A stretch of 64,000 nt of DNA, taken from NCBI GenBank assembly GCA_002390675.1, contig DGPZ01000019.1, forward strand, positions 6,795-70,794, written 5' to 3'. Source of the stretch: Deltaproteobacteria bacterium UBA4427 (GTDB taxonomy: Bacteria; Myxococcota_A; UBA9160; UBA4427). Shown piece after piece: positions 1,290-61,020 of the stretch. Numbering within the stretch: position 1 is the first letter of the stretch; each line of letters starts with the position of its first letter. The position numbers and the translations under genes were made by a program. Below the pieces are notes generated by a model. That model saw only the letters and a list, made by a program, of their open reading frames with translations, searched no databases and was not told where the DNA came from.

Positions 1290-3590
1290 ATGTCCAAAAT
1301 GCTCTTGTTGGCTGATGATTCGGTCGTGATTCAGAAACTCGTTGGCCTCTCGTTCGCCAACGAGAACATCGAAATCGTATCGACTGATAACGGGGATGAC
1401 GCCGTTACTATGGCGCGTGATCTGCGCCCCGATATCGTTCTAGCCGACGTCGTGATGCCAGGTCTCAGCGGCTACGAAGTCTGTGAAGCCATCAAACAAG
1501 ATGCCGGTCTCGCACACACGCCCGTGCTACTGCTGACGGGCACGTTCGAGGCCTTCGACGAAGCTCGGGCGGCCGCGGTTGGCGCAAACGGACAAATAAC
1601 GAAGCCCTTCGAAGCGCAAGCGCTCGTCGAGCGCGTGAACGTCGCCATAAATGCATCCGTCGAAGTGCGAGTGTCTGGTGCGAGCCTAGGTTCACAAGAG
1701 ACGACCGTCGGGCCGATTAGCCACGACTTGAGCGCCTCGATCCCGGGTGCGATCAAGAATGCAACATCCCCTTCAAGCGACCTTTTCGAAAGCGGCATAA
1801 CGTCTCTCACCGAAGATCTTTTATTCGACGATGAGACCTCCCTCGACGCGACGTCCTCGATAGCGGTTGGCTTCGAAAATGCGAATGAAGAGACGGCTTC
1901 GGGAGTTTTCGGCTTACCCGAGGATGACGCCAATGATCTGCTCGATACCCAGGGCGGCTCGATAGTCCATGGACAACCGGTGTCCTCGGCGAATGCCGAT
2001 GCATCTTCTACGTTGGGCGCACCGAAGTTGGACCCACCGCGCCCCCCCTTTTCCGAATCCTCGTTGAACGTGACCGACGATTCGGCGATCGACCGCGATC
2101 AGTTGGCTTCACTGGACAACGATTCGCTTGCGCCCCCGCCACTTCCGATCACTACCGCAGCCGAACTCGGCAGCGTGCTCGATGCGGAGGGCATGGACGG
2201 CGACACAACGATTCTCACCGCAAACGATGACATTATTGCGACGACCTCTCCGATTCTTCATGATCCTCTTGGGGATCCCTTCGAGGCGACGGACAGCTTC
2301 GATGATTTGACGGCTCACGCTCATTTGTTAGATATCGACCAGGACGTCGCAACCGCCAACGGCCCCGTATTCAATGACTCTGGCAGCCGTGCTGCTGTCA
2401 GCGCTTTGGATGCGCTGGGTGATCTTGACGCCGACGCGACGATCGTTGCCAACCTCGACGAAGCCCTCGCAGACCCGCGCCTAATCGATGCAGTGCCGGC
2501 CGACTCCGGCTTTACACACGGTCAGTACCCGAGCGCCGATCCTTTCACGCCTAGCGCGATCGCCGCCGCTGAATCGACGATTGTGGAGCCGGATCCTTTG
2601 GGCCCCGTGCCGCCGCGCACCGCGTCTAACGAAGTCGATTTCGCATTCGATGTCTCGGAGCAGATCGCCGCAAACGATCTCTCGGAAACGGCCAGCGAAT
2701 CCTCGGCGTCCCTAGACAACTCCTTCTCCTCATTAATGGACATCTCCGAGTCACAGATTAACTCGGCCTCGCCGGCCGACGCGGGGTCCGCCGTTCCTGA
2801 TGCGACGAACACGATCGGGGGTGACTTCGACGTATCCTCAAATGATCTGGCGACGGCTCCGGTAACGGACCTCATCCAGGCGGAGGACACGATTGCTGGA
2901 GCAGGCGGCAGCCTCGCCGCCGCTCCGATCTCTCAACCCGAAGCGCTGATTGAAATGCCCGAGCTTCCGCAGTCCTATTCCCCCCCGCAGAATGCAGCGG
3001 CCGACGACTCGATCACCGGCAGCGCTTCGCTCTTCGATGACCTCGCCACGGGATCGCCGCTCGATGAGCTTGATGTGCCCAACGCCTTCGCATCCGCTGG
3101 CGATCTAGACATCGACCAGGATCTCCTCAACGACGACCTATCGGTTGGCCTCCGTGCATCAAGGGAAGACTCGGAGACCTTCGAGGCAGATCTCGAACAC
3201 GCAGAGCCCTATTCGACGGACGAGCCCGCAGCTGCCCCTGAATTTATTCGCGCCGTCTCTGACGACGAATTCGACATGGGCGCTCATGCTGATATCGGCA
3301 CTGACTTAGGCGCCGACTTAGGCGCCGAGTCCGGCGCAATAGACGGACTCGGCGGACAGGCTGGCCCCGAAGCGCGTGAGCATTCGGTCCCAGATCTCAC
3401 CCCGATGATGGAACAGCGCATTCAGGAGACCCTCGAAAAAGTCGCCTGGGAAGCCTTCTCCGATCTGTCGGAATCAATCGTCAAGCAGGTCATGGGTCGC
3501 GTGGAGCAGATCGCCTGGGAAGTCATTCCCGAGATGGCCGAGACCCTCGTGCGTGAAGAGATCCGCAAGATGAAGGGCGACGACAAGTAG
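1290..3590 (+). CDS. CheY-like receiver protein with a ~560 aa acidic disordered linker and a short conserved C-terminal helical module (RomR-like architecture)
   Basis: The receiver has DD (LLLADDS), the phospho-acceptor D (VLADVVMPG), T (LLLTG) and K (ITKPF). It is followed by a D/E/S/A/P-rich low-complexity stretch. The C-terminus is EKVAWEAFSDLSESIVKQVMGRVEQIAWEVIPEMAETLVREEIRKM. Confidence 0.85.
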   Translation: MSKMLLLADDSVVIQKLVGLSFANENIEIVSTDNGDDAVTMARDLRPDIVLADVVMPGLSGYEVCEAIKQDAGLAHTPVLLLTGTFEAFDEARAAAVGANGQITKPFEAQALVERVNVAINASVEVRVSGASLGSQETTVGPISHDLSASIPGAIKNATSPSSDLFESGITSLTEDLLFDDETSLDATSSIAVGFENANEETASGVFGLPEDDANDLLDTQGGSIVHGQPVSSANADASSTLGAPKLDPPRPPFSESSLNVTDDSAIDRDQLASLDNDSLAPPPLPITTAAELGSVLDAEGMDGDTTILTANDDIIATTSPILHDPLGDPFEATDSFDDLTAHAHLLDIDQDVATANGPVFNDSGSRAAVSALDALGDLDADATIVANLDEALADPRLIDAVPADSGFTHGQYPSADPFTPSAIAAAESTIVEPDPLGPVPPRTASNEVDFAFDVSEQIAANDLSETASESSASLDNSFSSLMDISESQINSASPADAGSAVPDATNTIGGDFDVSSNDLATAPVTDLIQAEDTIAGAGGSLAAAPISQPEALIEMPELPQSYSPPQNAAADDSITGSASLFDDLATGSPLDELDVPNAFASAGDLDIDQDLLNDDLSVGLRASREDSETFEADLEHAEPYSTDEPAAAPEFIRAVSDDEFDMGAHADIGTDLGADLGAESGAIDGLGGQAGPEAREHSVPDLTPMMEQRIQETLEKVAWEAFSDLSESIVKQVMGRVEQIAWEVIPEMAETLVREEIRKMKGDDK

Positions 3591-3730
3591 GCGCAGATCA
3601 GCTTTTCTCGCGGTCTACTTAAACCGTCGCGCCCGAATTGGGTGCGGGCGGGTTGAAACGCCCGCCTGCGATAGACTCCGCGGCCCGTTGTCGCCCATCC
3701 GCGGCGAGCAACCAGATACGGAGTCCCCGC

Positions 3731-4648
3731 GTGTCCGACCAATCCCAAGCCGCACCGAGCGCCCCACCCGTCTCCGACTGGTCCGCGCTCCTCGATCTCG
3801 CTCTAGCCGAAGATGTGGGTCCTGGAGACGTTACCAGCGACGTCGTGATCGATGCAGCTCGACGGGGTCGAGGCCGAATCGAGGCACGTCAACCGATGGT
3901 CGTGTGTGGTTTGCCTATCGCGCGAGAAGTCTTTCGTCGCGTGGATCCCGACCTCGTCGTCGAATCGATTGACGGAATCGAAGATGGGGTCGTCGCTGAG
4001 GCCGGGCAACCGCTGCTTCGAATTCACGGACGTTATGGATCAATCCTAACCGGCGAACGGACCGCACTCAATTTCATGGGCCGACTCTGCGGAATAGCAA
4101 GCCAGAGCCAACGCCTCGTCGATCTAGTCTCCGACCTCTCAGTCCAATTGGTCGACACCCGGAAGACGACCCCAGGATGGCGATTGCTTGAAAAATATGC
4201 GGTGGCTGTAGGCGGCGGGCTGAATCATCGAATAGGCCTCTACGACGCACTACTCGTAAAGGACAATCACATCGCGGCGGCGGGCAGTCTAGACCTCGCC
4301 ATTGTCCGCGCGGTTCAAAACTCGCCCGAGGGCTTGCCCGTCCAGATCGAAGTAGAAAGCGAGGCCTCTGCGGACCGCGCGATCGAACTCGGATGCAATT
4401 TTCTCCTACTCGACAACATGACGCCGGAAACCATCGCGAAGATCGTCGATCGCCACTCGAAGAACGTCGTACTCGAAGCGTCTGGCGGAATCCACGAGGG
4501 GAATCTTCGCGCGTATGCCGAAACGGGCGTCGCTCGAATTTCCATGGGCGCCCTCACCCATTCGGTCATGTCCACAGACGTTGCACTCGAAATTGATCTC
4601 GAAGACGGCGACCTGGACGAATTCCCTAGCGAGTCGGCGCAAGCATGA
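3731..4648 (+). CDS. nadC: Nicotinate-nucleotide pyrophosphorylase (quinolinate phosphoribosyltransferase)
   Basis: Motifs LALAEDVGPGDVTS, LTGERTALNFMGRLCGIAS, DTRKTTPGWRLLEKYAVAVGGGLNHRIGLYDALLVKDNH. The longest ORF starts at 3638, but the GTG at 3731 gives a typical N-terminal length. Confidence 0.9.
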   Translation: MSDQSQAAPSAPPVSDWSALLDLALAEDVGPGDVTSDVVIDAARRGRGRIEARQPMVVCGLPIAREVFRRVDPDLVVESIDGIEDGVVAEAGQPLLRIHGRYGSILTGERTALNFMGRLCGIASQSQRLVDLVSDLSVQLVDTRKTTPGWRLLEKYAVAVGGGLNHRIGLYDALLVKDNHIAAAGSLDLAIVRAVQNSPEGLPVQIEVESEASADRAIELGCNFLLLDNMTPETIAKIVDRHSKNVVLEASGGIHEGNLRAYAETGVARISMGALTHSVMSTDVALEIDLEDGDLDEFPSESAQA

Positions 4649-5673
4649 GCGACGCGACCACCGGATCCAGTGCGATCCTTGCAGCGCTCCGCGCAGCCGG
4701 AAGCCAAGCAATGTCCGGGGAGGCCCTCTCGGAGACGCTCGGCGTCTCTCGGGCCCAAGTGTGGAAGCATGTCGGCGCGTTGCGCAAGCGCGGCTACGAG
4801 ATCGAAGGCGAGCGGGGGGACGGCTATACGCTTCGCGGCGTACCCGACCGGCTCTACGCCGACGAAGTACAGAACGGCCTCGACACGCGATGGGTCGCAC
4901 AGAACATCGAGCACCTCGAAGAGACGGACTCAACGAACCGCGTCGCATTCGACCTTGGTCGCCAAGGCGCTCCCGCCGGCACCGTCGTCATCGCCGAAGC
5001 GCAGAGCGCCGGTCGTGGACGCCTCGGCCGCGCATTCTACTCACCAGCGCACCAGAACATCTACTCCTCGACGCTATTACGCCCGACGTGCTCGATTGCA
5101 GATACACCGACCCTAATCCTCGGGGCCGCCGTCGCGGTCGCTGAGAGCGTCGCAAAGTTTCTCGGCGATGAAGAATCCGTCGAAATCAAATGGCCTAATG
5201 ACGTGCTGATTCGGCAGCGCAAAACCTCCGGGATCCTGATGGAAAGCAGCGCCGAGGGCACCCGGATCGCCTTCGCGATTCTGGGTATCGGCGTGAATCT
5301 CAACGTCGACCGGGAGACCTTCCCCGAGGAGTTCCGCCCGCTCGCTACGAGCCTGGCGAGCGAGCTCGGGCATCCCGTCGACCGCGCTGACTTTGCGCGC
5401 TGTCTATTCGAGCGACTCGAGGCCCAACTCAACCTCCACGCCGCCGGCGGATTCGACGCCGTCCGGCCTCGATTCGAGTCCTTCTTTCGAATGACGGGTC
5501 AGCCGGTCGGGGTCGAGGAGATCGGTGGTCAGCGAATCGATGGGCGCGCCCTGGGTATTGCTCCGGGCGGCGCCTTGGAAGTCGAAATCAGCGAAGGCCC
5601 CCGGATCGGTGAGATCGTTAGTGTCATGGCTGGAGATGTCACGCTGGCGAAGCCACCCCCGGACGCGCAATGA
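4645..5673 (+). CDS. birA: Biotin-[acetyl-CoA-carboxylase] ligase / biotin operon repressor
   Basis: N-terminal wHTH (GEALSETLGVSRAQVWKHVGALRKRGYEIE) and the GRGRLGRAFYSP biotin-ligase motif. ATGA overlap with the nadC stop. Confidence 0.9.
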   Translation: MSDATTGSSAILAALRAAGSQAMSGEALSETLGVSRAQVWKHVGALRKRGYEIEGERGDGYTLRGVPDRLYADEVQNGLDTRWVAQNIEHLEETDSTNRVAFDLGRQGAPAGTVVIAEAQSAGRGRLGRAFYSPAHQNIYSSTLLRPTCSIADTPTLILGAAVAVAESVAKFLGDEESVEIKWPNDVLIRQRKTSGILMESSAEGTRIAFAILGIGVNLNVDRETFPEEFRPLATSLASELGHPVDRADFARCLFERLEAQLNLHAAGGFDAVRPRFESFFRMTGQPVGVEEIGGQRIDGRALGIAPGGALEVEISEGPRIGEIVSVMAGDVTLAKPPPDAQ

Positions 5674-5842
5674 TCTCGTCGGCCTGTTTACCTGCGGCTC
5701 TATGTCGATAGCCCCAGCTACAGGCCGACCGACATATTTCCGTACACACCCACCGCTAGACCCAACGTCAGACCGCGTGTAGTCGCGGGCAATGGCCCGG
5801 ACATGAACCCGCCGCTAGGCGGAGCCCCCAGAGAGGAACCCT

Positions 5843-6640
5843 GTGAACGAGCCAGTTCTACTCGTCATCGACGTCGGAAACACCAATGTGGCCCTCGGCG
5901 TCTACGATTACCAAAACGGAGAGTCGGCCCTCAGCCATCACTGGCGGGTATCGACCCATCGGGAGCAGACCTCGGACGAGCTCGTCATTACGCTGTCGTC
6001 GCTCTTCGCGACTGAGGGCCGTAAGACCAATGAGATTACGGATGTGATCCTATCGAGCGTTGTACCGCCGGTGGTGCCCATCTGGGAGCGCGTCTCCACG
6101 AAGCTTTTTGGAAACCCGCCGTCGATCGTTGGCCCCGGAATTCGAACCGGAATGCCGGTCCGCTATGAAAATCCCCACGAGGTAGGGGCCGACCGGATAG
6201 TCAACGCAGTCGCCGCCTTCGAGCTCTACGGCGGGCCGATCATCGTGGTCGATTTCGGAACTGCAACGACCTTCGATTGCATCTCCCACCTGGGCGAATA
6301 CCTGGGCGGCGTCATCTGTCCCGGGATTCACATCTCTATGGAGGCCCTCTTCGAACGAGCCTCCAAACTTCACCGCGTTGAAATCGCACGGCCTAAATCC
6401 GTCATTGGTCGAACCACCACCGGTGCGCTGCAATCCGGTCTGCTCTACGGCTACGCGGGGCTCGTCGATTCTATGATCGAGCGAATTCGCGGAGAACTCG
6501 GCGCGGACGCAAAGGTGATCGCGACAGGTGGGTTGGCGAGGCTGATCGCGGAAGAAAGTGAAGGAATCGGCCAGGTAGCACCCTTCCTGACCCTCGATGG
6601 CCTCCGTATCCTCTTCGAAAAGAACCGCAGCGAAGGCTAA
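5843..6640 (+). CDS. coaX: Type III pantothenate kinase
   Basis: LLVIDVGNTNVALGVY, GADRIVNAVAA, VVDFGTATTFD. Classical birA-coaX adjacency. Confidence 0.9.
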   Translation: MNEPVLLVIDVGNTNVALGVYDYQNGESALSHHWRVSTHREQTSDELVITLSSLFATEGRKTNEITDVILSSVVPPVVPIWERVSTKLFGNPPSIVGPGIRTGMPVRYENPHEVGADRIVNAVAAFELYGGPIIVVDFGTATTFDCISHLGEYLGGVICPGIHISMEALFERASKLHRVEIARPKSVIGRTTTGALQSGLLYGYAGLVDSMIERIRGELGADAKVIATGGLARLIAEESEGIGQVAPFLTLDGLRILFEKNRSEG

Positions 6641-6729
6641 ACCCTCGCCTGAGTCTCACCCAGGTGGCCCTCAACTCCCACGTCACAGGGGTCAACACCC
6701 CGCCATCAAGTCCCCATCTTGCCTGACCG

Positions 6730-7911
6730 ATGCACTCTGAGGGATGCCACGTCGCAATTGCCCGGAAAGCACAGGCTTTGGGGAAATGGTGGCCTTTGGA
6801 AGCTCCGGCCGGAAACGGACCGAAGACGGGGAAACACGCGTTGAGCGAGTCAAGCGGAAGCCAGAAGGTGCAGCTCAAGCTGTCGGCGCAGGCGGAGAAA
6901 TATACTCGTCGCGACGCACCTATCGAGGTACGCCAAATGGCCGCCCGCGGGGCGCTGCCTCTTGAGCCCATCGAGCTGGCCACCGTCCTTTTCGTGCTCG
7001 CGAACGATCCCGAGGCTTCGGTCAAAGAGACCGCACGACTGAGTCTCGAGAATCTGACCGTGCACGTTCTTTCGACCGTTCTGAGTGGACCGACGCACCC
7101 GGCTCTGCTCTCCTTCATGGCCCGCGTCCACCAAGAAAACGAGACTCGCTGCGAAGCCCTCGCATTGAATAACTCGACGGATGATCAAACCATCGCCTGG
7201 TTGGCGACCCTGCCGCATAGCCGCGTGGTCGACATCATCAGCCAGAATCAAGAGCGCATGATGCGCACCGAGGACATCGTCGACGCGCTTGGGGCCAACC
7301 CGCTGACCGGACGCGCCGTGATCGAGCGGATCCTGACTTTCCTCGGCCTCGAAGAACGCGATGTCGCAGAAGACACCGAGGAGCTTGGCGAGGCCGAGGC
7401 GGAAGCCGCCGTGCTCGAGTTGCTCGGCGAAGATATGGCGGATGTCGCGAAGCTGCTCGTGCAGGATCGCGAGTCCGATGAAGAGGACGAAGACGTTAAG
7501 ATTAGTCTCTACGCGGCCGTGCAAAACATGACCGTCATGCAAAAGGTCAAGCTTACGCGAATGGGCGGCAAGGACGCCCGTGCGATGCTGATCAAGGATC
7601 GTAATAGAATCGTCTCCGCTTCCGTGCTCGGCAGTCCCAAGCTGACTGAAACAGAAGTCATCGGATTCGCGCAGAACCGCTCGATCGGCGAAGAGTTGTT
7701 GCGCATCATCGCTAGCAACCGAGACTGGACGAAGAATTATAAGGTCAAGTACGCGCTGGTAACGAACCCAAAGACTCCACAGCCGCAAGCGCTTAAGTTC
7801 ATCAATTACCTGCAGGACAAGGATCTGCGAGGACTCATGAAGAGCCGAGAAGTTTCGAGCAATATAAGCGCCCACGCCCGGCGAATCCTGAGCAAGAAGG
7901 GGAAAATCTGA
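6730..7911 (+). CDS. Helical-repeat (HEAT/LRV-like) protein of unknown function, first gene of the GTPase module
   Basis: Repeated 'NP.TP / SPKLTE'-type helical units (KYALVTNPKTPQPQALKFINYL; VLGSPKLTETEVIGFAQNRSI; LFVLANDPEASVKETARLSL) and a central acidic stretch. A more likely start is the GTG at 6868, preceded by GGAAG. Its stop overlaps the next ATG (ATGA-type junction at 7909-7913). Confidence 0.6.
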   Translation: MHSEGCHVAIARKAQALGKWWPLEAPAGNGPKTGKHALSESSGSQKVQLKLSAQAEKYTRRDAPIEVRQMAARGALPLEPIELATVLFVLANDPEASVKETARLSLENLTVHVLSTVLSGPTHPALLSFMARVHQENETRCEALALNNSTDDQTIAWLATLPHSRVVDIISQNQERMMRTEDIVDALGANPLTGRAVIERILTFLGLEERDVAEDTEELGEAEAEAAVLELLGEDMADVAKLLVQDRESDEEDEDVKISLYAAVQNMTVMQKVKLTRMGGKDARAMLIKDRNRIVSASVLGSPKLTETEVIGFAQNRSIGEELLRIIASNRDWTKNYKVKYALVTNPKTPQPQALKFINYLQDKDLRGLMKSREVSSNISAHARRILSKKGKI

Positions 7912-9065
7912 TGGGGGACGTGAATGCGCGCATCCTGCTCTGGGGACTCGAAGGCTCGGGCAAGACCACGACCCTCGAAACCATTCACGCAAAGCTTCGC
8001 GAAGACCTGCGAGGCCCCCTGCGACGCGAAACCACGCGCCTTGACCCGACAGTCTTTTTCGAATCGCTTTCGATCACGCTAGGCGAAGTCGGAGGTGTCG
8101 GAACGCAGCTCGACTTAATCGCGGTGCCCGGTGCATCCGACCAGGTCATGACGCGCAAGCAGCTGCTCGACGAGGTCGACGGGATCGTACTCGTGCTCGA
8201 TTGCTCCGCGGAACGGATCGAAGACAACTGCGAAAGTATCGCGGAACTCCGGGCATCACTCGAAGCCTATGGCCGAACTCTCGAAACCTTCCCGGTCGTG
8301 CTCCAGTACAATAAGCGCGACATCGCCGACCCCTTCGCTATCGAAGACCTGCATCGCCGTATCGGTCTTGAGCAGTGCGCTGTATTTGAATCCATCGCCA
8401 CGACAGGCCACGGCATCCTTCCGACACTTACTACGATTTCAAAGCACGTCGTGCGCGCACGACGTGGCGCGAGTCAGGAGATCGACCCGGCGGTAGCTGC
8501 TGCCGCAGCGATCGGCGCGGCCTCCCCGGCGGCACCGATCGATCTGCCGTCCCCGCCGATCGAGATGCTTGCGAACTCTGCCGGGGGTCTAGAGATCCCA
8601 GAACTAACGCCCCTGAAATTGGGTAAAGAGCTGGGCGACCCGACCGAAGCAGAACTCGCCGGTGAGATCCTCGAAGCGGTCTCTGTCGCGGAAAACGCCC
8701 CTGACGAATCCGTATTCGAAGCCGAATCATTCGAAGCCATATCGACTGCGGAACTCTTCGAATCCGCCATCCTAGCGGAAGGCGAGCAGGAGAGCTTTCA
8801 GGCATTAGGCGCAGTCGAAATAGACCTTTCAGACGACGAGATCGACGCTTGGTCGGCGATCGACGAGCAAGTCGAGAAACCCACGAACTCTCTCGGTGAA
8901 CTCCGCATCGTCTCAGCAGGCCGAGCGACCGTCGAGGCGGATGGCGGCCTCCGTTTACCGCTGGTGCTCGGTGATGAATCTGGCGCGTCGCGCAGCATCG
9001 TACTTTCACTACGACTCGATTCACTAATCGCATCCGATGTATCCGATGCGCGGTTGGACGACTAA
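7911..9065 (+). CDS. MglA-family Ras-like small GTPase paralog with a ~190 aa acidic C-terminal extension
   Basis: Collinear with M. xanthus MglA: P-loop GLEGSGKT, PTVFFESLSITLGEV (MglA RTLFFDFLPLSLGEI), AVPGA (MglA TVPGQ), VDGIVLVLD, VLQYNKRDIADP (MglA VIQYNKRDLPNA). The C-terminal half is D/E/A/S-rich. Confidence 0.8.
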   Translation: MGDVNARILLWGLEGSGKTTTLETIHAKLREDLRGPLRRETTRLDPTVFFESLSITLGEVGGVGTQLDLIAVPGASDQVMTRKQLLDEVDGIVLVLDCSAERIEDNCESIAELRASLEAYGRTLETFPVVLQYNKRDIADPFAIEDLHRRIGLEQCAVFESIATTGHGILPTLTTISKHVVRARRGASQEIDPAVAAAAAIGAASPAAPIDLPSPPIEMLANSAGGLEIPELTPLKLGKELGDPTEAELAGEILEAVSVAENAPDESVFEAESFEAISTAELFESAILAEGEQESFQALGAVEIDLSDDEIDAWSAIDEQVEKPTNSLGELRIVSAGRATVEADGGLRLPLVLGDESGASRSIVLSLRLDSLIASDVSDARLDD

Positions 9066-11344
9066 TGCGCCGTCGTCTCGGCATTTGGGGCGCCTCTGAG
9101 GAGTCGCTTCGACTCCTGCGCCTGCTGTCGGGCAATCCGGACGTCGAGGTGCTGCGCATCTTTGACGACTCCGTCGCGAGCGCTCTCGAACGAGCGCGCG
9201 GCATAGGGACCGCCCTCGCCCATCAAGTCGCTCCGCTTCTGCTCGACGACGAAGCTGCTTTTTTCGCCGAAACTGAATTCGATGCAATCATCGATGCGCG
9301 AGGCGACTTCGCGAGTCACGTGCCGGCCGGGCCACGCTCCGCCATTCAGGCTGTCACGCCACTCACCGCACGGCTACTTTGGGGTTACGGCGTTGCGCCG
9401 AGGGATCGCAAAGCTGAGCTCCTGCAGGCGCTGCATGAAGTTGTCGAGTCTGTCGACATGACCGTCGCGGCGGACGAACTCTTCGAGCGCATGCTTGAGA
9501 TCGCAGTCGGAGTCACTGGCGCTGAAGGCGGAAGCCTTATGCTTCTCGATCCCCGCGCAAACGTACTTCGCATTCGAGTCGCACAGGGCGTCGAACCCGA
9601 GTTGTGGCCAAAGATTCGCGTCGAACTCGGACAGGGTATCTCCGGACGCGTCGCCGCAGAAGGTCGACCGATCCATCTTCGCGGGCGAGCGGATGGCGCA
9701 AACTACGATCTACTCCGCGAGCGCGTTGACGTCGAGTCTGCGCTCTGTGTCCCCATGATTCATCATGGCAAGGTGCTAGGCGTCATCAACGTCCATCATT
9801 CACAGCGCGCCGATGTTTTTTCCGACGACGACCTCGCCTTCATGGAACAGCTCGCATCCCTCGATGCGCAGATCATTGCCCGCGCGCAAGAGCACGAGAG
9901 CCTCCGTAGTCAGGCTGCCCGCTACGACGCTATTCGCGAGGTGCAGCGCATCCTCAGCGGCGCAGCGAGCCTGACTGACCGCCTAGAAGAATTCTGCCGC
10001 TTCGTCGCGGAACGAGCTGGCCAAGGCATCGCACAGCTCTACTTGCGAGAAACGGATGGCGAACTCCGCATGGTCGCGACCTCCCTCGAGGGCAGCGGTT
10101 TCGGTGGTGAGTATCGACTTCCGCCGGACGCCGGTGTGGATGGCGACGCAGTTCGTCATCAAAGACCTGCTCTTCTGCGGTACGAAGACGGACGTATCGG
10201 CTACGCCGCGCTTCCTTTGGTAGCGGGCAAGCAACTGGTCGGCCTTCTTTCGCTCCAGGCCGGCGCGACTTCCGAACAGAATCGTGGAACCCTCGAATCC
10301 TGGCAAGAAATAGCTGCGGCAGCCGCCGACACCATCGCGCGCCGCAACAAAGAAGCGCGCATGGCCACCCAGGCCGAACGCGTCAACGTCATCAATGAGA
10401 CCTCAATCCGGATGCTCTCTTGCAAGGAACCTAACGAGGTCGCACGCCTCGCCACGTCTTCGGCGTCGATGATCCTCGAAGGTGATCACGCCATCTTGCG
10501 CCTGCAAGACCCGACGACGCGCCGTTATTCGATTCGCTCCTATTTCGGAGCCGCAGACGGCGAAGCGCAGGAAGCTCTCTTCCGGCTCGATAAGGCAGTG
10601 ACCGTCGACACCATCAGACGACGAGCGGCCCATCTCATACAAGACGCGAGCCTCGAACCTCAGCTCGGCGAGTTCGTCGACGAAATACGTTCGGTACTCA
10701 GTGCGCCCATCAAACGAAACGGCGAAGTAGTCGGCACCCTTGCGGTTTATGACAAGGTCGCGCTCGATCGGTTCTTTGCGAGCCGTTTCGATGATGAAGA
10801 TTTGCAGGTCTTCGGGCGCTTTATTTCGTACGTCGAGCGCGCGCTCGACCACGCACTCTCTCACCGTGAGAACCGCCAGAACCGGAACTTCGACGAAGAA
10901 ACCGGGCTCCCCAACGACAACTATCTCGGCAAGCGGCTCTCAGAAGAAATCGCGCGTGCCGCAGGACGCGAAAATGCCTTAGCCCTCTGCGTCTGCAAAC
11001 TCGAGAACCGCGCAGAGCTGACGGCCGAGGCGGGTGCGACTCATGTGGGTCGAATCATCGCTCTTCTCGCTGAATCCCTGAAGACCCATCTGCGGGAATT
11101 CGACGTACTCGCCCGCATCGATCGCGACGAATTCGCGGTCCTCATGCCCGAGCCAGGCCGTACGCCGGGAGAGCGAGTTTTTGAACTCGCCCGCGCCGTC
11201 GCGGACGAGGTTTCGAAGAACGAGTCTCTCAACCAACCGCTTCGAATAGGCCTAGCCTTCGGCTACGGAGTTCATCCCACGGATGGCGACGACCGCGAAT
11301 CTCTCATTAGGCATGCCCGAGAACCGCGCATCCGGATGGTCTAG
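9065..11344 (+). CDS. Multi-GAF protein with a C-terminal degenerate GGDEF domain (A-site DRDEF, I-site REFD retained)
   Basis: GAF signatures (GAEGGSLMLLDPRANVLRIRVAQG..GISGRVAAEGRPIHL..SALCVPMIHHGKVLGVINVHHS, plus further GAF-like blocks). GGDEF-domain start ETGLPNDNYLGKRL. Core LREFDVLARIDRDEFAVLMPE. TAATG overlap with the upstream GTPase gene. Confidence 0.8.
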   Translation: MRRRLGIWGASEESLRLLRLLSGNPDVEVLRIFDDSVASALERARGIGTALAHQVAPLLLDDEAAFFAETEFDAIIDARGDFASHVPAGPRSAIQAVTPLTARLLWGYGVAPRDRKAELLQALHEVVESVDMTVAADELFERMLEIAVGVTGAEGGSLMLLDPRANVLRIRVAQGVEPELWPKIRVELGQGISGRVAAEGRPIHLRGRADGANYDLLRERVDVESALCVPMIHHGKVLGVINVHHSQRADVFSDDDLAFMEQLASLDAQIIARAQEHESLRSQAARYDAIREVQRILSGAASLTDRLEEFCRFVAERAGQGIAQLYLRETDGELRMVATSLEGSGFGGEYRLPPDAGVDGDAVRHQRPALLRYEDGRIGYAALPLVAGKQLVGLLSLQAGATSEQNRGTLESWQEIAAAAADTIARRNKEARMATQAERVNVINETSIRMLSCKEPNEVARLATSSASMILEGDHAILRLQDPTTRRYSIRSYFGAADGEAQEALFRLDKAVTVDTIRRRAAHLIQDASLEPQLGEFVDEIRSVLSAPIKRNGEVVGTLAVYDKVALDRFFASRFDDEDLQVFGRFISYVERALDHALSHRENRQNRNFDEETGLPNDNYLGKRLSEEIARAAGRENALALCVCKLENRAELTAEAGATHVGRIIALLAESLKTHLREFDVLARIDRDEFAVLMPEPGRTPGERVFELARAVADEVSKNESLNQPLRIGLAFGYGVHPTDGDDRESLIRHAREPRIRMV

Positions 11345-11351
11345 GCGTCCG

Positions 11352-11510
11352 CGCCGTACGTAGCTCTTCCATATCCGGCAGTAGTTCGCGGCAAGCAATC
11401 AGCCCGAAGTCCAGTTGATCTCGGTAGCTCACGACGGTCACATTTAGCCCCTGACCGTCCGTAATCGCAGAGGCCGGATAGTAGGTCTGCGTTCCCGACC
11501 ACCCACAAGC
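11352..11510 (-). pseudogene. C-terminal relic of a WS/DGAT acyltransferase gene
   Basis: Minus-strand translation TQTYYPASAITDGQGLNVTVVSYRDQLDFGLIACRELLPDMEELRTA matches the C-terminal block of the two full WS/DGAT genes in this window (GLGITVMSYAGSLFFSFNCDPDIVPD; GLNITVLSYCGELHFGLVHDPALVPE). Nothing N-terminal to it is recognisable. Confidence 0.55.
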
Positions 11511-11691
11511 GACTCGCGGGGACGCGGCAAGTTCGAGATGATCCCGTTGGGCAAGCGCGCAGTGAGCCCCCGCCGCCGCGCGACACGCTCTATCCCAAAC
11601 GCAACGAGGGGGCGGCCAAATTGGCCACCCCCTCGTATGGAGTTCAGATCCTAAGCACGGCAGAACCGCCCTCACGTGATCTCGTACAGAC

Positions 11692-12948
11692 TTACTTCGT
11701 GTAGGCCTCAATCAGGACGTCTGAGGTCTCGGGCCGCATGATGCGCGGGTCCGGGCGTTCGCCGGCCTGCAGCATGGAGCGAACCTTCGTTCCGGAGATC
11801 CCAAAGGGCTTCTCGTCTTTGTGACGCTCGGTGAGGTCGACTCGGCCGAGGCTCTCGTAGAAGGCTGCGAAGCCGACCTTGCAGGCCTGGATCGAGAGAT
11901 CGCCGGGCAGCTTGTCGAAGATCTCATGGGCATCGAAGTCGCCCCAGATCGCTTCGCCATCTTCGAAGGGTGCGTCGGCGTGCTTGCGGCCGATCACGAT
12001 GTCCGAGAAGCCATAGTTCTGTCGGTAAATGCCGTGCATGACCGCTTCTGAAGGACCGCCGTAGAACATCTTGATATCGAGACCGATCAGCTCGAAGACA
12101 TCCGAGATGTCGTAGCCAGCCTTGTCCCAGATCGCCTGATCCTTGTCGCCTTCGCCGAGCAGACCCTCGCCGTGCAGTCGTCGGTAGCAGAGCATGCGCG
12201 TGGCGGCGGGAACGTCATCGCCCTTGAGCTCACCCATCAACGGGTTGAGTACGGCGCCAGCAAAATGTCCGGCGGCCGTGAGGGCTTCCACGCCGTATAC
12301 GAGTGCGTATTCATGTGCGCGATGAAGCGGGTTGCGAGTCTGGAATGCCAGCGCGCGTTCCCACTTCTTGCCGCGGATAAATTCTCGGGTCATTCGGGGC
12401 GAGAGCATGAACTCGCCGTAGGCCGAATTCCGGGGCTGGGGCAGAGCGCGGAGCGTGCCGCCGATCAGCTTGCCTCGGTCGTCGTTCGCGACGATGCGGC
12501 CACCGGGATGATCAACGCGCTCAGTGCCATAAACGCACTGGAGATACTTGGGCTTGTCCCAGTCAAAGACTTCCAGGTCTTCGATGATTGCGACGATATT
12601 GCCCGCCTCCGTCTTCACAGCGCAGGCGCCGCCAGCAGAGAGCGTTCCGGCTTCGACGTCGGTCAGCGGGAGCGAAATCGGAATGGTCCAGGCGTATCGT
12701 CCGCCCTCGGAGAGAATAACCTTCTCGTCGAGCGAGAGATCAAAGGCCGCCTTCTTCATAGGGCCGGTGAGCGGCGAAAGCGCGCCGTCGGCGATGCGGT
12801 AAATGGTCGAGAGATCGGCATCGGTCACGCGGATCGACGGGAGGCCACCGGCCTCGGACAGGAATGCCGCTTGGTCCTTGAAGGAGACAATGCGGTCGAC
12901 GGGCTCGGTAAGGCCACCGTGGACGGGAACGAGATCTTGCTGGCTCAT
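11692..12948 (-). CDS. sat: Sulfate adenylyltransferase (ATP sulfurylase)
   Basis: [17 protein letters not shown] motif, PUA-like N-terminal domain, length 418 aa. Confidence 0.9.
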
Positions 12949-39395: not shown

Positions 39396-40817
39396 CTATC
39401 CCTGCACGCCCACCGCACGAAGCGCTGGCCCGCGCGATTCCGTGCTGATTAACAAGGATGCTACTTCGGCCTCTACGCCGTCGCGTAGCAACCCAACGTC
39501 GGGAACGATGTCCGGATCGCAATTAAATGAGAAGAAGAGCGAGCCCGCATAACTCATTACGGTGATCCCTAGGCCTGAGGTGTCTTGAAGCGGCAGGATG
39601 CCATAACACTCTTCGAGCTTCGCGCCGTTCAGGTAAAGCGGTTGTTGCGGGCCCGGGCTTTGCAAAACGGCAAGCTGTCCGTTTTCGATTCGCTTGAGTG
39701 CACGGGCGCCAATCGCGAAGAGGCGCGCGGCAGTCCAAATGTCGCCACTCGCTAGACTCTCCGCGGAGGCGAGATTTTGCTCGCTTCGAATGCGTCGCGT
39801 CTGCTCGCCCAGAAGATCCTGCCGTGCTTCCCCGGACGCTTCCCAAACCGGAAGCTCTATGACCCACGCCTCCGCCGTTTCGCCTGTAGCATCGAGAATC
39901 GGAGTCACTGCGCGAAGGTCAACAGTCGTCGGGCTGATCTTAAGACCCTGCACGAAGCGGCGAAGCGCACCTGTTAGAATCGTAAGGACGGCGTCGTGCA
40001 CCGTTCCGCCAATAGTTTGACGAATCGCCTGCACTTGATCGAGATCGACCTCCTGAACCGCATAGGAACGATGCGGACTCAGGTTGCCATCGAAGGGCGA
40101 CTCGCCCGCTGGACGAATCTGATACCCCAGAGCACGAAGAACGTTCTGCGCGCGCTTTTGCACGAGACTAGACGCGCGAGCAGGACTTTCCCAGAATCGC
40201 ATAGCGCGACTCACAGCGCGACGAGAAGGGCTCCAGCGCCTGATCACTTCCTCGCCAAACAACTCTACCGGAGAAGGCGCTGGCCTAACGAGCGCCCGCG
40301 TCGCTTTCGGCAGCGGAGCATCCTCGTCGGCAGAAAGTAAAGCCTGCAAAAGGTCTGCCCCTTCAAGATGCGCGAGCGCCTTGTGCATCTTAAGGATCAT
40401 CGCGAAGCGTCCACCTTCAAGACCTTCAAGCACCCAACAATCCCATAGCGGGCGCGATCGATCGAGCCGAGTTGCAGCGATTCGAGACGCCGTGCGACAA
40501 AGCTGCTTGTGGCTTCCGGGGCGCGGAAGGCTGGATTGCCGGAGATGGAAGTCGAGGTTGAATTCCTGGTCATCCACCCAAACAGGATGGCCGTCTAGCG
40601 GCACCCGGCGAAGCTTCGCGCGCAGGCGCGGGAGCTCCGGGAGTCGCGCGTTCACGATCCCGCGAATCTTCTCAAAATCGACGCCTCCTTCCTTCGTAGC
40701 GAAGGGCCCCGAATCAAAAATAAGGATCATCGCCGTGTGCTCGCGTCGTCGCGAAGACTCGTTCTCTAGATAGTCCGCGCATTCATCAGAAAGGCGCTCG
40801 TAGTAGATTCTGGCCAA
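39396..40817 (-). CDS. WS/DGAT-family acyltransferase paralog with a degenerate active-site motif
   Basis: Family-wide collinearity (LDRSRPLWDCWVLEGLEGGRFAMILKMH; GLGITVMSYAGSLFFSFNCDPDIVPD), but HKALAHLEG occupies the position of HHxxxDG. Confidence 0.8.
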   Translation of the reverse strand: MARIYYERLSDECADYLENESSRRREHTAMILIFDSGPFATKEGGVDFEKIRGIVNARLPELPRLRAKLRRVPLDGHPVWVDDQEFNLDFHLRQSSLPRPGSHKQLCRTASRIAATRLDRSRPLWDCWVLEGLEGGRFAMILKMHKALAHLEGADLLQALLSADEDAPLPKATRALVRPAPSPVELFGEEVIRRWSPSRRAVSRAMRFWESPARASSLVQKRAQNVLRALGYQIRPAGESPFDGNLSPHRSYAVQEVDLDQVQAIRQTIGGTVHDAVLTILTGALRRFVQGLKISPTTVDLRAVTPILDATGETAEAWVIELPVWEASGEARQDLLGEQTRRIRSEQNLASAESLASGDIWTAARLFAIGARALKRIENGQLAVLQSPGPQQPLYLNGAKLEECYGILPLQDTSGLGITVMSYAGSLFFSFNCDPDIVPDVGLLRDGVEAEVASLLISTESRGPALRAVGVQG

Positions 40818-43100: not shown

Positions 43101-44534
43101 ATGCAACAGCTCACCCCCCAGGACACCGCCTTTCTTTCCATCGAGACCCCCGAACTCCCCACTCATATTGGCGGCCTCGTCTTTCTCCGTCCGGAGGCAG
43201 GAAGTGGATTCGGCTTCGCCGCCTTCGCGGAGTTCGTCCGTGAGCGACTCGGAGCCGTCGACCGTTTCTCCTGGCAATTGCAGGAAGTCCCGTTCGGACT
43301 CGATCGCCCCTATTGGGTAACGCGCGAGAATTTTGATCCGGCAGACCACATTCATGAAATTCGACTGCCGGCGCCCTACTCCCACGAGTCGCTGAGCAAA
43401 TTAGTGGGTCGGATCTTTGAACGCCCGATGGACCGCAGTCGACCGCTCTGGGATATGACCTTGATCGGAGGTCTCCCCGGCGGACGATACGCGGTTCTCT
43501 GGCGCACCCATCACTGCATGATGGATGGCGCTTCCGGTGCGAGCCTGACTGAGCAGCTCTTCGATATCACGCCCGATGCGAAGCGCGAGATCGCGCCGAA
43601 GCTGTCCGAGGATGCAACCGCCGGCGAACGACTGTCGACCTCCAAGATCTACGGTCGCGCCATGATGAACGCGAGTGTTCTGCCACAGAAGCAGTCAAAG
43701 TATTTGGGACAGATCGCCAATAGCCTACTCACAAAGGATAAAAAGGAGACGAAAGACAAGGCGGGGTCCTCGACATCGGAATCGGACAGCAATGTTCTGG
43801 CTCCCAAGTCTCGCCTAAACGGCGTCGTTGGCCCCCACCGCGGGTTCGCTTGGTCCTCTGTTTCCCTCGACGACGTAAAGCGCATTAAAAATACGCTCGG
43901 TGTCACCATCAACGATGTCGTTCTTGCGATCACCGGCGGCGCTGTTCGCGACTACCTCGAAGCCCGCGGAGGACTCCCTTCAAAGTCCTTAATCGCCTCG
44001 GTTCCTGTTTCGATGCGCGCCAAGGGCGACACCGCGATCGGCAACCAAATACGTGAGCTCCCGATCTATTGGGGAACGGATTGCGAGGATCCGATTGAAC
44101 GCCTCACCGCAATCCACAATCACGCCTCGGAAGCGAAGCGAAAAGCGCACGAAGGCGACGCCTTCGACTTGATCGGCATGGTGAGCGAAGCGCTCCTTCC
44201 TGGTGCGCTGAATCTCCTCATGCGCGGTGCGGCCAAAGCAGGCGATCACATGCCTCTACCGGCGAATGCCGTTGTCTCGAACGTGCCGATGGCACCTATG
44301 CCGCTCTACTGCGCCGGCGCGCTCATCGAGCAGGTGATACCGCTCTCTCTTCTCGCGCCGACTCAAGGCCTCAATATCACGGTTCTAAGCTACTGCGGCG
44401 AGCTGCATTTCGGCCTCGTCCATGATCCCGCACTCGTGCCGGAGGCTTGGGACCTTGCCGGGTTGATCGGAAAGAACCTGCAGAAATTGCAGGGCGCCCT
44501 CGATCGCGAATTCGAAGACTCGATCAGCGCGTAA
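43101..44534 (+). CDS. Wax ester synthase/diacylglycerol O-acyltransferase (WS/DGAT), canonical active site
   Basis: MQQLTPQDTAFLSIETP, RPLWDMTLIGGLPGGRYAVLWRTHHCMMDGASG (HHxxxDG), NVPMAPMPLYCAGA, GLNITVLSYCGELHFGLV. Confidence 0.9.
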   Translation: MQQLTPQDTAFLSIETPELPTHIGGLVFLRPEAGSGFGFAAFAEFVRERLGAVDRFSWQLQEVPFGLDRPYWVTRENFDPADHIHEIRLPAPYSHESLSKLVGRIFERPMDRSRPLWDMTLIGGLPGGRYAVLWRTHHCMMDGASGASLTEQLFDITPDAKREIAPKLSEDATAGERLSTSKIYGRAMMNASVLPQKQSKYLGQIANSLLTKDKKETKDKAGSSTSESDSNVLAPKSRLNGVVGPHRGFAWSSVSLDDVKRIKNTLGVTINDVVLAITGGAVRDYLEARGGLPSKSLIASVPVSMRAKGDTAIGNQIRELPIYWGTDCEDPIERLTAIHNHASEAKRKAHEGDAFDLIGMVSEALLPGALNLLMRGAAKAGDHMPLPANAVVSNVPMAPMPLYCAGALIEQVIPLSLLAPTQGLNITVLSYCGELHFGLVHDPALVPEAWDLAGLIGKNLQKLQGALDREFEDSISA

Positions 44535-53493: not shown

Positions 53494-53885
53494 CGCGCGT
53501 CGGACAAGCTAAAGTGAGGGTTAAAAGAACCACCCTGCGCACTGCAGTAAGGTAACGATGGCGGGAACACCCGATTCTTAGTCGGGGTCCACCTAGAAAT
53601 CTGCACGCATGGAGGCTTTCGACACGCGGCAATCATGAAAGATCTCCAGTAACCGCTTGAATTTCCGATGGTTTGAATGGAGAAGGAGTCAACCTCCGGC
53701 TATGTTCCACCCCTCCGGGTAGACCAAGCAGAATGTTTGCGGAAAGACCGCAAAGCCCGACCCTATATGAGATCTCGGATCATATTTGAACCGGTCTCAG
53801 AGCGTATCCAGCACACAGACTGTCCGCGGAGGCAATTCGCAGGTCAGTCCGTTTGAGAGATAGGACGAGAGGAACAAGGATCGGG

Positions 53886-54773
53886 ATGGGTCCCTGGGTG
53901 ATCAAGGCACTGAATTTCGTCCTGGTGGGAGCGAGCTGCTTCCTGGTGGCCGGAGTCGTGACCGAAATTGGAGGAGAGGCGATTGAGCCGCCGCCGATCT
54001 CGAACGAGGTCCATCGGATTGAATCCGGCGATGCCGTCGCTGCCGCGTCGCCTTCGGCCATTCTTGATCGCAATCTTTTTGGTGCCCAGCTCGCTGGCGA
54101 AGCTCAGATCGTCAATACGAGTGCCGCCGCTTCCGACGAAAATCTCGAGGCGACGAAACTTCCGCTCCGGCTTCTCGGAACCGCAGCTGCCCGTGACGTT
54201 GACCGATCGCGCGCCGCGATCCAAGATGAAAAGACGCGAAAGCACATCGTCGTCGCCGTCGGCGACGAACTCGCAGGGCATACCCGAGTCCGCGTGAGGG
54301 ATATTCAGCGGTCACGCGTCGTCCTCGACAATCGCGGGAAGCTCGAAGAACTCGCCCTGCACGACGAAGACGACCGGCCGAAGCTCAAGGCGAAGAGGCC
54401 CCGCGTGCGCGAAGCCCGACGTAAGCCTCTGAAGGACACCCTCAACGACCGTCTAGCAAAGATCAACGGTAAGAATGGACAGGGCATTTCCAACCTTCTC
54501 TCCTCCGCACGGATCGTCCCGGAATACGACAAGGCCAGCGGCGAGATGCTCGGCATGAAAGTCGATACGATCAAAGCGGACAGTCTCTTAGAAAAAATCG
54601 GTCTTCAAAATGGCGACATCATTACGGAGGTGAACGGCATAGTCGTCGACCGCCTCGAAGCAACTAGCAAGATCTTTGAAGAGCTCTCTAGTGCAAAAGA
54701 AATCAACGTAGCCGCTACCCGCGGCAACGAAGGCGTGATCCTTGGTGGTATCGCCGACGACCTCATGGAGTAG
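53886..54773 (+). CDS. gspC: Type II secretion system protein C (TM anchor + C-terminal PDZ)
   Basis: N-terminal TM VIKALNFVLVGASCFLVAGVV. PDZ block GMKVDTIKADSLLEKIGLQNGDIITEVNG. Sits immediately upstream of gspD. The longest ORF starts at 53853. Confidence 0.8.
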   Translation: MGPWVIKALNFVLVGASCFLVAGVVTEIGGEAIEPPPISNEVHRIESGDAVAAASPSAILDRNLFGAQLAGEAQIVNTSAAASDENLEATKLPLRLLGTAAARDVDRSRAAIQDEKTRKHIVVAVGDELAGHTRVRVRDIQRSRVVLDNRGKLEELALHDEDDRPKLKAKRPRVREARRKPLKDTLNDRLAKINGKNGQGISNLLSSARIVPEYDKASGEMLGMKVDTIKADSLLEKIGLQNGDIITEVNGIVVDRLEATSKIFEELSSAKEINVAATRGNEGVILGGIADDLME

Positions 54774-54781
54774 TAACAGCA

Positions 54782-59019: not shown

Positions 59020-59143
59020 CGCTCGCCAAGAGTTCGACCGAGTCGCGCTCCGACACGATTAACGATGATCGACTAATCACTAACAACACCTATTTGATCA
59101 GCCATCTGATCGCAGAGCAAGCTGGGAATCACGGAGAACTAAG

Positions 59144-60379: not shown

Positions 60380-60540
60380 AACCATTTGACCTCGACTAAC
60401 CTCATAGTCCCGGACGGCCGAAGAAAGAAATCGTACCCACCCGAATTTCCCGGCCCTTGCCGGGTAGCCAGAGAGATCCGATGACCGACTTTTATACCTC
60501 CGCTTCTTCTTCATATTCGAGCCCTTCCGTCTCCGCGCAT

Positions 60541-61020
60541 ATGCGTGAGGTGCCGTTTCCCGAGGCGCAACGCAATGCTCGACGTCACACGCGAGGCAGT
60601 GCGGGCTTCACCCTGATCGAGATCATGGCCGTCGTCGTGATCATGGGCATGCTGATGGCGACCCTCGCGGTTGGGATCAGTGGGCAGCTTGACCGCGCAA
60701 CAATCGCCAACACAAAAACGCAGATCAACCGCATCGAGCAGGCCCTTGAGTTCTACAAGCTGGACAACAAGCGATTCCCGAACGCCGATCAAGGCCTCGA
60801 CGCCCTGCTCCGCCAGCCGACTGCGCCCCCAGTTCCTAAGAGCTACAACCCTGCTGGGTACATAAAGAGGGAGGCACTCCTAGATGCGTGGGACATGCCA
60901 TTCCAGTATCGGATCCCTGGCTCTCATAACCCGTACACCTTTGACATCTGGTCCTATGGTCCGGACGGCGTCGAAGGCGGTGACGACATCAAGAATTGGT
61001 CGGATGAAGGCGACGCCTAA
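60541..61020 (+). CDS. gspG: Type II secretion major pseudopilin GspG
   Basis: G|FTLIEIMAVVVIMG prepilin motif and the GspG core YKLDNKRFPNADQGLDAL..DAWDMPFQY..SYGPDGVEGGDDI. The longest ORF starts at 60457. Confidence 0.9.
   Translation: MREVPFPEAQRNARRHTRGSAGFTLIEIMAVVVIMGMLMATLAVGISGQLDRATIANTKTQINRIEQALEFYKLDNKRFPNADQGLDALLRQPTAPPVPKSYNPAGYIKREALLDAWDMPFQYRIPGSHNPYTFDIWSYGPDGVEGGDDIKNWSDEGDA

Follow-up and report, generated by a model that had tools for sequence, protein, structure and literature searches.

A stretch of 64,000 nucleotides from Deltaproteobacteria bacterium UBA4427 (contig DGPZ01000019.1, positions 6,795 to 70,794 of the forward strand), referred to below as the window, was analysed around three adjacent genes. 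They encode a helical-repeat protein (HEL), an MglA-family GTPase and a protein with GAF domains and a degenerate GGDEF domain. The GC content of the window was ~60%. A response regulator gene, the block nadC, birA and coaX and the three open reading frames (ORFs) of the trio followed each other on the same strand, and a gene for ATP sulfurylase came next in convergent orientation (Table 1). The initial annotation, made from the letters of the DNA, had described the three genes as linked by stop-start overlaps. Both junctions were indeed one-base stop/start overlaps. The TAATG at the second junction was read correctly; the first had been called an ATGA-type junction and is in fact TGATG, sharing one base and not the four bases of ATGA. 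A Shine-Dalgarno-like AAGGGG was located 8-13 nt 5' of the ATG of the GTPase gene. Downstream, the hairpin that may end the operon was perfect, with the sequence GAGGGGGCGGCC AAATT GGCCACCCCCTC. An Rfam search over the whole window returned two tRNAs only, and a riboswitch near the operon was not found. The three genes are taken to constitute one translationally coupled operon.

Table 1. Coordinates of the trio, its domains and neighbouring features in the window, and of recurrent HEL neighbours in other loci (positions preceded by an L number refer to that locus)
Feature	Position	Strand	Evidence or remark
RomR-like response regulator, 766 aa	1290-3590	+	REC domain, E=9e-23; syntenic with the trio in the clade
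nadC, birA, coaX housekeeping block	3638-6640	+	kept upstream of HEL across distant lineages
HEL gene	6730-7911	+	ORF; ARM/HEAT-like alpha-solenoid
HEL N-domain	aa 53-206	+	AlphaFold2 model
HEL acidic linker	aa 207-253	+	net charge -17
HEL basic C-domain	aa 254 to about 393	+	net charge +15, isoelectric point (pI) 10.3
HEL/GTPase stop-start overlap TGATG	7909-7913	+	bases read
GTPase gene	7911-9065	+	ORF; MglA family
MglA-family G domain	7911-8468 (aa 1-186)	+	PDB sequence and fold matches
Disordered acidic tail	8469-8894 (aa 187-328)	+	net charge -29
Helix motif (E/D)(I/L)(L/F)E(A/S)AILAE(G/A)(E/D)	8751-8786 (aa 281-292)	+	nearly invariant; within acidic tail
C-terminal three-stranded beta mini-domain	8895-9038 (about aa 329-376)	+	confidently predicted; signature of the HEL-linked MglA subfamily
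GTPase/GAF-GGDEF stop-start overlap TAATG	9063-9067	+	bases read
GAF-GGDEF gene	9065-11344	+	ORF; three GAF domains and degenerate GGDEF
N-terminal region, then three GAF domains	9065-10864 (aa 1-120; aa ~121-600)	+	Pfam
Degenerate GGDEF domain	10865-11344	+	I-site/A-site stretch REFDVLARIDRDEF at nt 11093-11134
GC-rich hairpin, possible operon end	11606-11634	.	between convergent GGDEF and ATP-sulfurylase genes; sequence only
SPOR genes before HEL	L008:7400-8650; L010:7603-8787; L127:4797-5966; L137:2128-3099; L120:5174-5998
Further SPOR-before-HEL loci	L096, L101, L121, L128, L145, L152
EF-G paralogue	L127:2747-4831; L066:7400-9484; also L006, L007, L058, L096, L101, L120, L149, L152, others

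The GTPase was the only MglA-like ORF in the window. Its sequence matches in the PDB were MglA chains only, with a gapless alignment of query residues 3-183 to MglA residues 10-190 (E=8e-32). All of the top 14 Foldseek matches were likewise MglA structures (E 1e-15 to 1e-12), and Ras, Rho and Arf proteins came after a gap of nine orders of magnitude, with Ras/Rho at ~1e-6. The G domain was 35% identical to Myxococcus xanthus MglA. These matches, together with the charge of the tail (net -29), confirmed the earlier description as an MglA-family GTPase with a long acidic tail. Residues were mapped to MglA with a fixed offset of 7. The P-loop glycine Gly21 of MglA is replaced by Glu14, the intrinsic arginine finger Arg53 by Pro46, the hallmark G3 threonine Thr78 of the TxxGQ motif by Ala71 and the catalytic glutamine Gln82 by Ala75. 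The P-loop GLEGSGKT, the switch-I Thr47, the G3 Gly74 and the NKRD motif are kept. Conservation was counted in 121 sequences of the window GTPase clade. Position 46 was Pro in 121/121, position 75 was Ala, Gly or Ser and never Gln, position 14 was Glu, Ala, Asp, Gln or Ser and never Gly, and position 71 was Ala in 109/121. In the same set G12, G17, K18, T/S19, T/S47, G74, N134, K135 and D137 were invariant or nearly so. The catalytic residues were lost in the window clade and in its nearest outgroups, L006 and L007. A genome scan, which took one genome per species and yielded 80 loci, showed Gly, Arg and Gln at the three catalytic positions in 70 of them; the residue equivalent to Thr78 was Thr or Ser in every one of these 70. 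The MglA mutants R53, Q82 and G21V and the behaviour of Ras G12 link these positions to the loss of hydrolysis. With the equivalents of Gly21, Arg53 and Gln82 lost and the nucleotide motifs kept, the protein is therefore predicted to bind GTP and to be unable to hydrolyse it, alone or with MglB, which would make it a pseudo-switch. As Thr78 is also replaced, no GTPase cycle is expected. This degeneration was not part of the initial annotation. Its statement that an MglB/roadblock gene for a GTPase-activating protein (GAP) is absent was borne out, as no roadblock/MglB ORF was found by a jackhmmer search seeded with MglB in the 64-kb window or in any of the HEL loci. Of the 80 comparison loci, 40 gave MglB next to canonical MglA in that search.

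The third gene encodes a protein of 759 aa with three GAF stretches and a GGDEF domain (PF00990, E=1.7e-17), so the family matches agree with the multi-GAF and GGDEF product proposed earlier. The first 120 aa (window 9065-9424) matched no Pfam family; this N-terminal part is absent from the 483-aa Deferrimicrobiota-type orthologue described below. The GGDEF domain had been annotated with a dead active site (A-site) and a kept inhibitory site (I-site), and the residues agreed on both counts. The motif reads REFD-VLARI-DRDEF, in which GG is changed to DR and the RxxD (REFD, aa 677-680) lies five residues upstream, the canonical I-site spacing. When aligned to the active cyclase 6zxm, the DxD metal site is K/E, and the base-binding Asn and Asp are T and R. 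The orthologues in L001-L005 carried D[R/K/G/T/V]DEF with R(E/D)FD, and that in L058 carried SEGKF with REYD, again degenerate with the I-site kept. The ligands of metal and base are gone in both phyla as well. By these residues the domain is of the receptor type for cyclic di-GMP (c-di-GMP), with putative binding at the I-site.

The HEL product gave no match to Pfam or NCBIfam at E<=0.1. An AlphaFold2 model built from 20 homologues (mean confidence, pLDDT, 76) contained 25 helices arranged in two all-alpha solenoid domains, which are joined by an acidic disordered linker. The best Foldseek matches in the PDB were designed armadillo proteins, importin-alpha/beta and the HEAT repeats of the PP2A A subunit. 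Since these matches reached only E ~1e-3, a generic ARM/HEAT-like solenoid is indicated. The HEAT/LRV-like repeat protein of the initial annotation is thus recovered at the level of the fold; a curated repeat model was not matched, and Pfam gave no TPR match. The fold search against the PDB found no nucleic-acid-binding match either. The true start is probably the TTG at 6841, which gives a protein of 356 aa, because homologues are 356-358 aa long and several begin at TTG. A homologue search with a mixed HEL alignment returned only close relatives that were already known. Exhaustive HMMER searches yielded 3432 clusters (50% identity) at E<=1e-3, 458 of them at E<=1e-30, and the matches were full-length with 30-45% identity. 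Ten distant members were likewise without a significant Pfam match and showed only sub-threshold LRV_2 or HEAT_2. HEL therefore represents a large family without a curated model. Two residues were invariant across homologues of ~30% identity, R284 in GNKEAR and N346 in NPKTP.

The regulator gene at the beginning of the block had been called RomR-like, an assignment to which its architecture corresponds. A REC domain with the phospho-acceptor Asp53 is followed by a disordered linker of 566 aa with a net charge of -100 and by a conserved Glu-rich C-terminal helix, and orthologues were conserved only in REC and in the last ~70 aa. The neighbouring regulator thus has the architecture that defines RomR (PMC3441718): a REC domain, a disordered linker that is not conserved, and a Glu-rich, alpha-helical C-terminus that is conserved. 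A Trp was conserved 23-24 residues from the C-terminus in the regulator of the window (23) and in the proteins of L133 and L138; in RomR, W394, which is required for MglC binding, is located 26 residues from the end (PMC12719032). The specificity positions of REC read SVIVLSE, compared to STIVLAD reported for RomR_Bd of Bdellovibrio. A PDB search with the C-terminal helix returned a designed repeat protein only. Short regulators of 245-274 aa were also observed upstream of birA-coaX-HEL in two loci where an adjacent GTPase gene is absent (L133:3156-3893 and L138:1377-2201). They share the REC type of the window regulator and the helix 'W..(L/I)P.LAE.LLK(E/D)EI'. The neighbours of romR in M. 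xanthus are valS, a gene for a double-CheW protein and one for a response regulator with GGDEF domain, and the HEL/GTPase pair is not there. The possibility that the module is simply the described Myxococcus locus was rejected on these differing neighbours.

The trio was found outside this genome. Five Myxococcota-labelled loci from metagenome-assembled genomes (MAGs), L001-L005, held coaX, HEL, the GTPase gene and the GAF/GGDEF gene in this order, followed by the ATP-sulfurylase gene. The regulator and nadC were also present upstream in four of them; L001 ends inside birA. Their GTPases were 55-71% identical to that of the window, their HEL proteins 67-80% and their GGDEF proteins 74-86%. Three more contigs (L161-L163), with GTPases 52-58% identical, showed the same order, a third protein of 759 aa and coincident stop and start coordinates. 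Eight Myxococcota-labelled loci in all thus carried the trio, with GTPases 52-71% identical to that of the window. The one-base overlap between HEL and GTPase was conserved in 6/8 related loci; in L003 and L004 the two genes are 1 nt apart. That between GTPase and GGDEF gene was conserved in 7/8, the start in L001 being ambiguous. A reduced form with different flanks was detected in a separate phylum, in a Candidatus Deferrimicrobium MAG (L066) and its relative L058. The order there is coaX, an EF-G paralogue, a short HEL comprising only the C-domain (~147 aa), the GTPase gene and the GAF-GGDEF gene. The GTPase of these loci has 348 aa and the same mini-domain, the GAF-GGDEF protein has 483 aa, and the stop of the GTPase gene overlaps the start of the GGDEF gene. 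The neighbourhood survey suggested with the initial annotation, in which confinement to this genome was to speak against a unit, therefore turned out in favour of co-occurrence.

Distant HEL homologues were then used in a metagenome scan with a 7-sequence alignment (loci L081-L160). HEL-to-GTPase gaps were 0-30 nt. The C-terminal mini-domain was restricted to GTPases encoded directly 3' of HEL, with the sole exception of L009, where an SgmX-like TPR gene takes the place of HEL. Almost all of the distant GTPases linked to HEL have retained G/R/T/Q. In all 11 loci where the linked GTPase is intact and sequence upstream of HEL is available, HEL is directly preceded by the gene for a bitopic SPOR protein. 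This protein combines an acidic motif on the cytoplasmic side, ..DELL.DDFFKPP, with a single transmembrane helix, a Pro-rich linker and at least one SPOR domain. No SPOR gene is beside HEL in the clade of the window. In 19 loci of several lineages, coaX and HEL are separated by a gene for an EF-G paralogue. HEL and the tail-bearing MglA are thus an old pair whose third partner varies: it is a SPOR protein in most lineages, but the GAF/dead-GGDEF protein in the clade of the window and in Deferrimicrobiota. The SPOR partner of intact GTPases had escaped the initial annotation, as had the fact that HEL is mainly linked to coaX and mostly without an adjacent GTPase gene.

Several further observations were made in these neighbourhoods. 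birA-coaX (4645-6640 in the window) was the commonest upstream neighbour of HEL at ~30% identity, an unusually deep synteny with an unnamed solenoid family, and a small TPR protein (~160 aa) was often encoded between birA-coaX and HEL. The EF-G paralogue is full-length, with ~690 aa and all five EF-G domains. An independently degenerate HEL-linked GTPase (G21 to A, R53 to T, Q82 to N) occurred in a distant lineage at L098:1802-2800, with coaX directly upstream of HEL and the SPOR gene absent. In a Bacteriovoracaceae MAG (L009:7550-12154), the SgmX-like TPR protein has 350 aa, and the stop of its gene abuts the start of the gene for a tail-bearing MglA-like GTPase, which has Ser at the Gly21 position, as in Bdellovibrio MglA. 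A second TPR protein follows, then a 322-aa protein whose N-terminus resembled DUF4388/PATAN by eye and was without support in the family scan. In L008 a gene that is valyl-tRNA synthetase-like by N-terminal sequence and length (2241-4904) lies just upstream of birA-coaX-SPOR-HEL-GTPase. As valS of M. xanthus (MXAN4460) adjoins romR (PMC2034494), the gene in L008 may be what is left of an ancient syntenic block that joined romR to the HEL region.

Elsewhere in the window, a type II secretion cluster was present at 53853-63353. Among its products are a GspC-like protein, GspF and the secretin GspD (54782-57247), which bears a C-terminal SPOR domain in what seems an uncommon fusion. Two paralogous genes for wax-ester synthase/acyltransferases of the WS/DGAT type were located a few kb apart at 39396-40817 (minus strand) and 43101-44534 (plus strand).

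The best explanation of the locus is that the three products form a complex of fixed stoichiometry, in which the GTPase cycle has given way to control by c-di-GMP or GAF ligands, and that the role of this complex is probably positional. It was given even odds. Gene structure, residue states, conservation and neighbourhoods are observed here, whereas the complex, the nucleotide locking, the c-di-GMP binding and the spatial role are inferred. The G protein would be an MglA paralogue that binds guanine nucleotide without hydrolysis and would stay locked in the GTP form. Being unable to hydrolyse, it would be permanently 'on' and independent of MglB. HEL would be the fixed partner or adaptor of the GTPase. 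Docking of its basic C-domain to the acidic tail or to the helix motif is plausible given their opposite charges (+15 and -29). The protein with three GAF domains and the dead GGDEF would bind c-di-GMP at the intact I-site and possibly another ligand at the GAF domains, and this sensing would supply the regulation that the lost hydrolysis no longer gives. The output may consist in placing something at the pole or the division site, as suggested by the precedent of the family (MglA, SofG and the Bdellovibrio hub), by the SPOR partners and by the RomR-like neighbour.

Some results weigh against this explanation. The GTPase of the Deferrimicrobiota version is catalytically intact, so the coupling to the GGDEF protein needs no dead G protein. 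A GTPase gene adjoined HEL in only 10 of the 56 distant loci with enough downstream DNA (~18%), from which it follows that HEL has an existence independent of the G protein, and coaX was upstream of HEL in 23 of the 52 distant loci sampled. A promoter and terminator scan of 5600-11900 was indistinguishable from shuffled sequence and thus uninformative, and all sources were uncultured MAGs or metagenomes.

A wider reading that includes the other lineages was regarded as possible and rather doubtful. HEL and the tail-bearing MglA would form an undescribed, MglB-independent G-protein system extending over several phyla, and the ancestral SPOR protein would anchor it to septal peptidoglycan and so mark where the cell divides or where the new pole lies. 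The solenoid would be an MglA regulator or effector of a new class. In the clade of the window the system would have been rewired, with the GTPase cycle abolished and a c-di-GMP/GAF sensor in control.

The main rival to the proposed complex centres on HEL and was considered unlikely. HEL would belong to a housekeeping module tied to birA-coaX and the EF-G paralogue, for example as a basic solenoid binding RNA, ribosomes or membranes, and the MglA-like and GGDEF proteins would be lineage-specific accessories without polarity function. Such a module would fit the greater frequency of upstream coaX or birA (23/52) than of the GTPase gene (10/56), the 19 loci with an EF-G paralogue between coaX and HEL, the high pI of the C-domain (10.3) and the very large size of the HEL family with its 3432 clusters. 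However, the remaining partners that recur are proteins of signalling or positioning, namely the SPOR membrane protein, the RomR-like regulator and the c-di-GMP receptor. The GTPase subfamily almost never occurs without HEL, and HEL found no nucleic-acid-binding fold.

Hydrolysis could also be restored in trans, if HEL or the GGDEF protein supplied the catalytic residues and HEL were a new GAP unrelated to MglB. An Asn thumb of RapGAP supplies catalysis to the Gln-less Rap, HEL sits where mglB sits in canonical operons, and the invariant R284 and N346 of HEL would be at hand. This was nevertheless judged quite improbable. A Glu, Asp or Ala at the Gly21 position should block a finger in the active site, in line with the established behaviour of Ras G12 and MglA G21V. 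Three or four catalytic positions were lost jointly and the loss is kept in 121/121 sequences, and HEL is little changed beside catalytically intact GTPases.

That the operon is fortuitous, with independent functions co-transcribed with housekeeping genes, was given little weight. The whole 20-kb region is syntenic within the clade, and mere inheritance could explain the adjacency there, but the same adjacency was met in another phylum with different flanks, the start/stop overlaps are conserved, and HEL goes together with the C-terminal mini-domain that is specific to the GTPase subfamily. An active, unusual diguanylate cyclase under G-protein control was rejected on the residue evidence and has next to no likelihood: the GAF-GGDEF build resembles that of active cyclases such as DmxA of M. 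xanthus (PMC11255338), but GG is changed to D[RKGTV] in all orthologues and to SEGKF in L058, and the equivalents of the metal-binding Asp and of the base-binding Asn and Asp are replaced. An anti-phage defence system was likewise rejected, as PADLOC matched none of the three proteins and the chromosomal synteny is stable.

The proposed complex was compared with known systems. The initial annotation had named a hub at the invasive pole of Bdellovibrio bacteriovorus, and its account was accurate: the hub consists of MglA with Ser at position 21, the TPR protein Bd2492, RomR and the degenerate-GGDEF receptor CdgA, and it is MglB-less (PMC3983030). In the hub and in the locus alike, the MglA-type G protein is without MglB and has a residue other than Gly at position 21, and it is accompanied by a helical-repeat protein, a c-di-GMP receptor with degenerate GGDEF domain and a regulator of the RomR type. 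However, the Bdellovibrio genes are dispersed and their contacts were established by pull-down and two-hybrid assays, whereas here one overlapping operon is found. In addition, the repeat protein of the locus resembles ARM/HEAT and not TPR proteins by Pfam and fold, its G protein also lacks Arg53 and Gln82 and carries the tail and the beta mini-domain, and its receptor has three GAF domains. The likeness to the hub is one of analogy only. Taken as a whole, the interpretation given with the initial annotation was partly supported.

The MglA/MglB/RomR-RomX module of M. xanthus has a homologous G domain and, like the locus, a RomR-architecture regulator, which here is a near neighbour. It differs from the window, in which MglB is absent, the Arg finger, Gln, Gly21 and Thr78 are replaced and extra C-terminal regions are present. 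SofG and the system of the TPR effector SgmX are analogous in that a small MglA-family G protein works through an alpha-helical repeat protein, but in neither case does the partner share a fused operon with a c-di-GMP receptor. The catalytic residues are retained in SofG. PopA, PelD and SgmT are degenerate-GGDEF c-di-GMP receptors. Like CdgA-type receptors, the GAF-GGDEF protein has a dead A-site and an RxxD I-site five residues upstream, and unlike them it has an extra N-terminal region, three GAF domains and an obligate genetic coupling to a G protein. The actinobacterial conservons CvnA-D (PMC4316618, PMC13343842) similarly hard-wire an MglA-family G protein in a conserved multi-gene signalling operon. 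In contrast to the trio, they include the roadblock protein CvnB and a histidine kinase, have neither a solenoid nor a GGDEF protein and belong to a different MglA group. The pairing of a G protein with HEAT/ARM repeats, as in Ran-importin-beta and the Arl/ARM effector pairs of eukaryotes, and nucleotide binding without hydrolysis, as in pseudoGTPases, are parallels by analogy only. HEAT or GGDEF neighbours were not mentioned in a 2014 survey of prokaryotic small GTPases. No description of the arrangement came up in full-text literature searches in which MglA was paired with GGDEF, HEAT, pseudoGTPase, SPOR or gene neighbourhood, which agrees with the earlier remark that this fused unit was undescribed. 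The locus is regarded as a variant MglA-type module, wired to a degenerate-GGDEF receptor, with an undescribed partner family in HEL.

MglA-type G proteins are the main bacterial model of Ras-like spatial switches, and their regulation is still disputed. In a 2026 paper, RomRX is argued to be an effector and not a guanine nucleotide exchange factor (PMC13408092). The locus described here is a natural variant in which all hydrolysis residues were discarded and the nucleotide-binding motifs were kept under selection. If the proposed complex is true, it would show second-messenger signalling replacing the GTPase cycle, and it would give a first clue to the function of a solenoid family that is very large and still unnamed.

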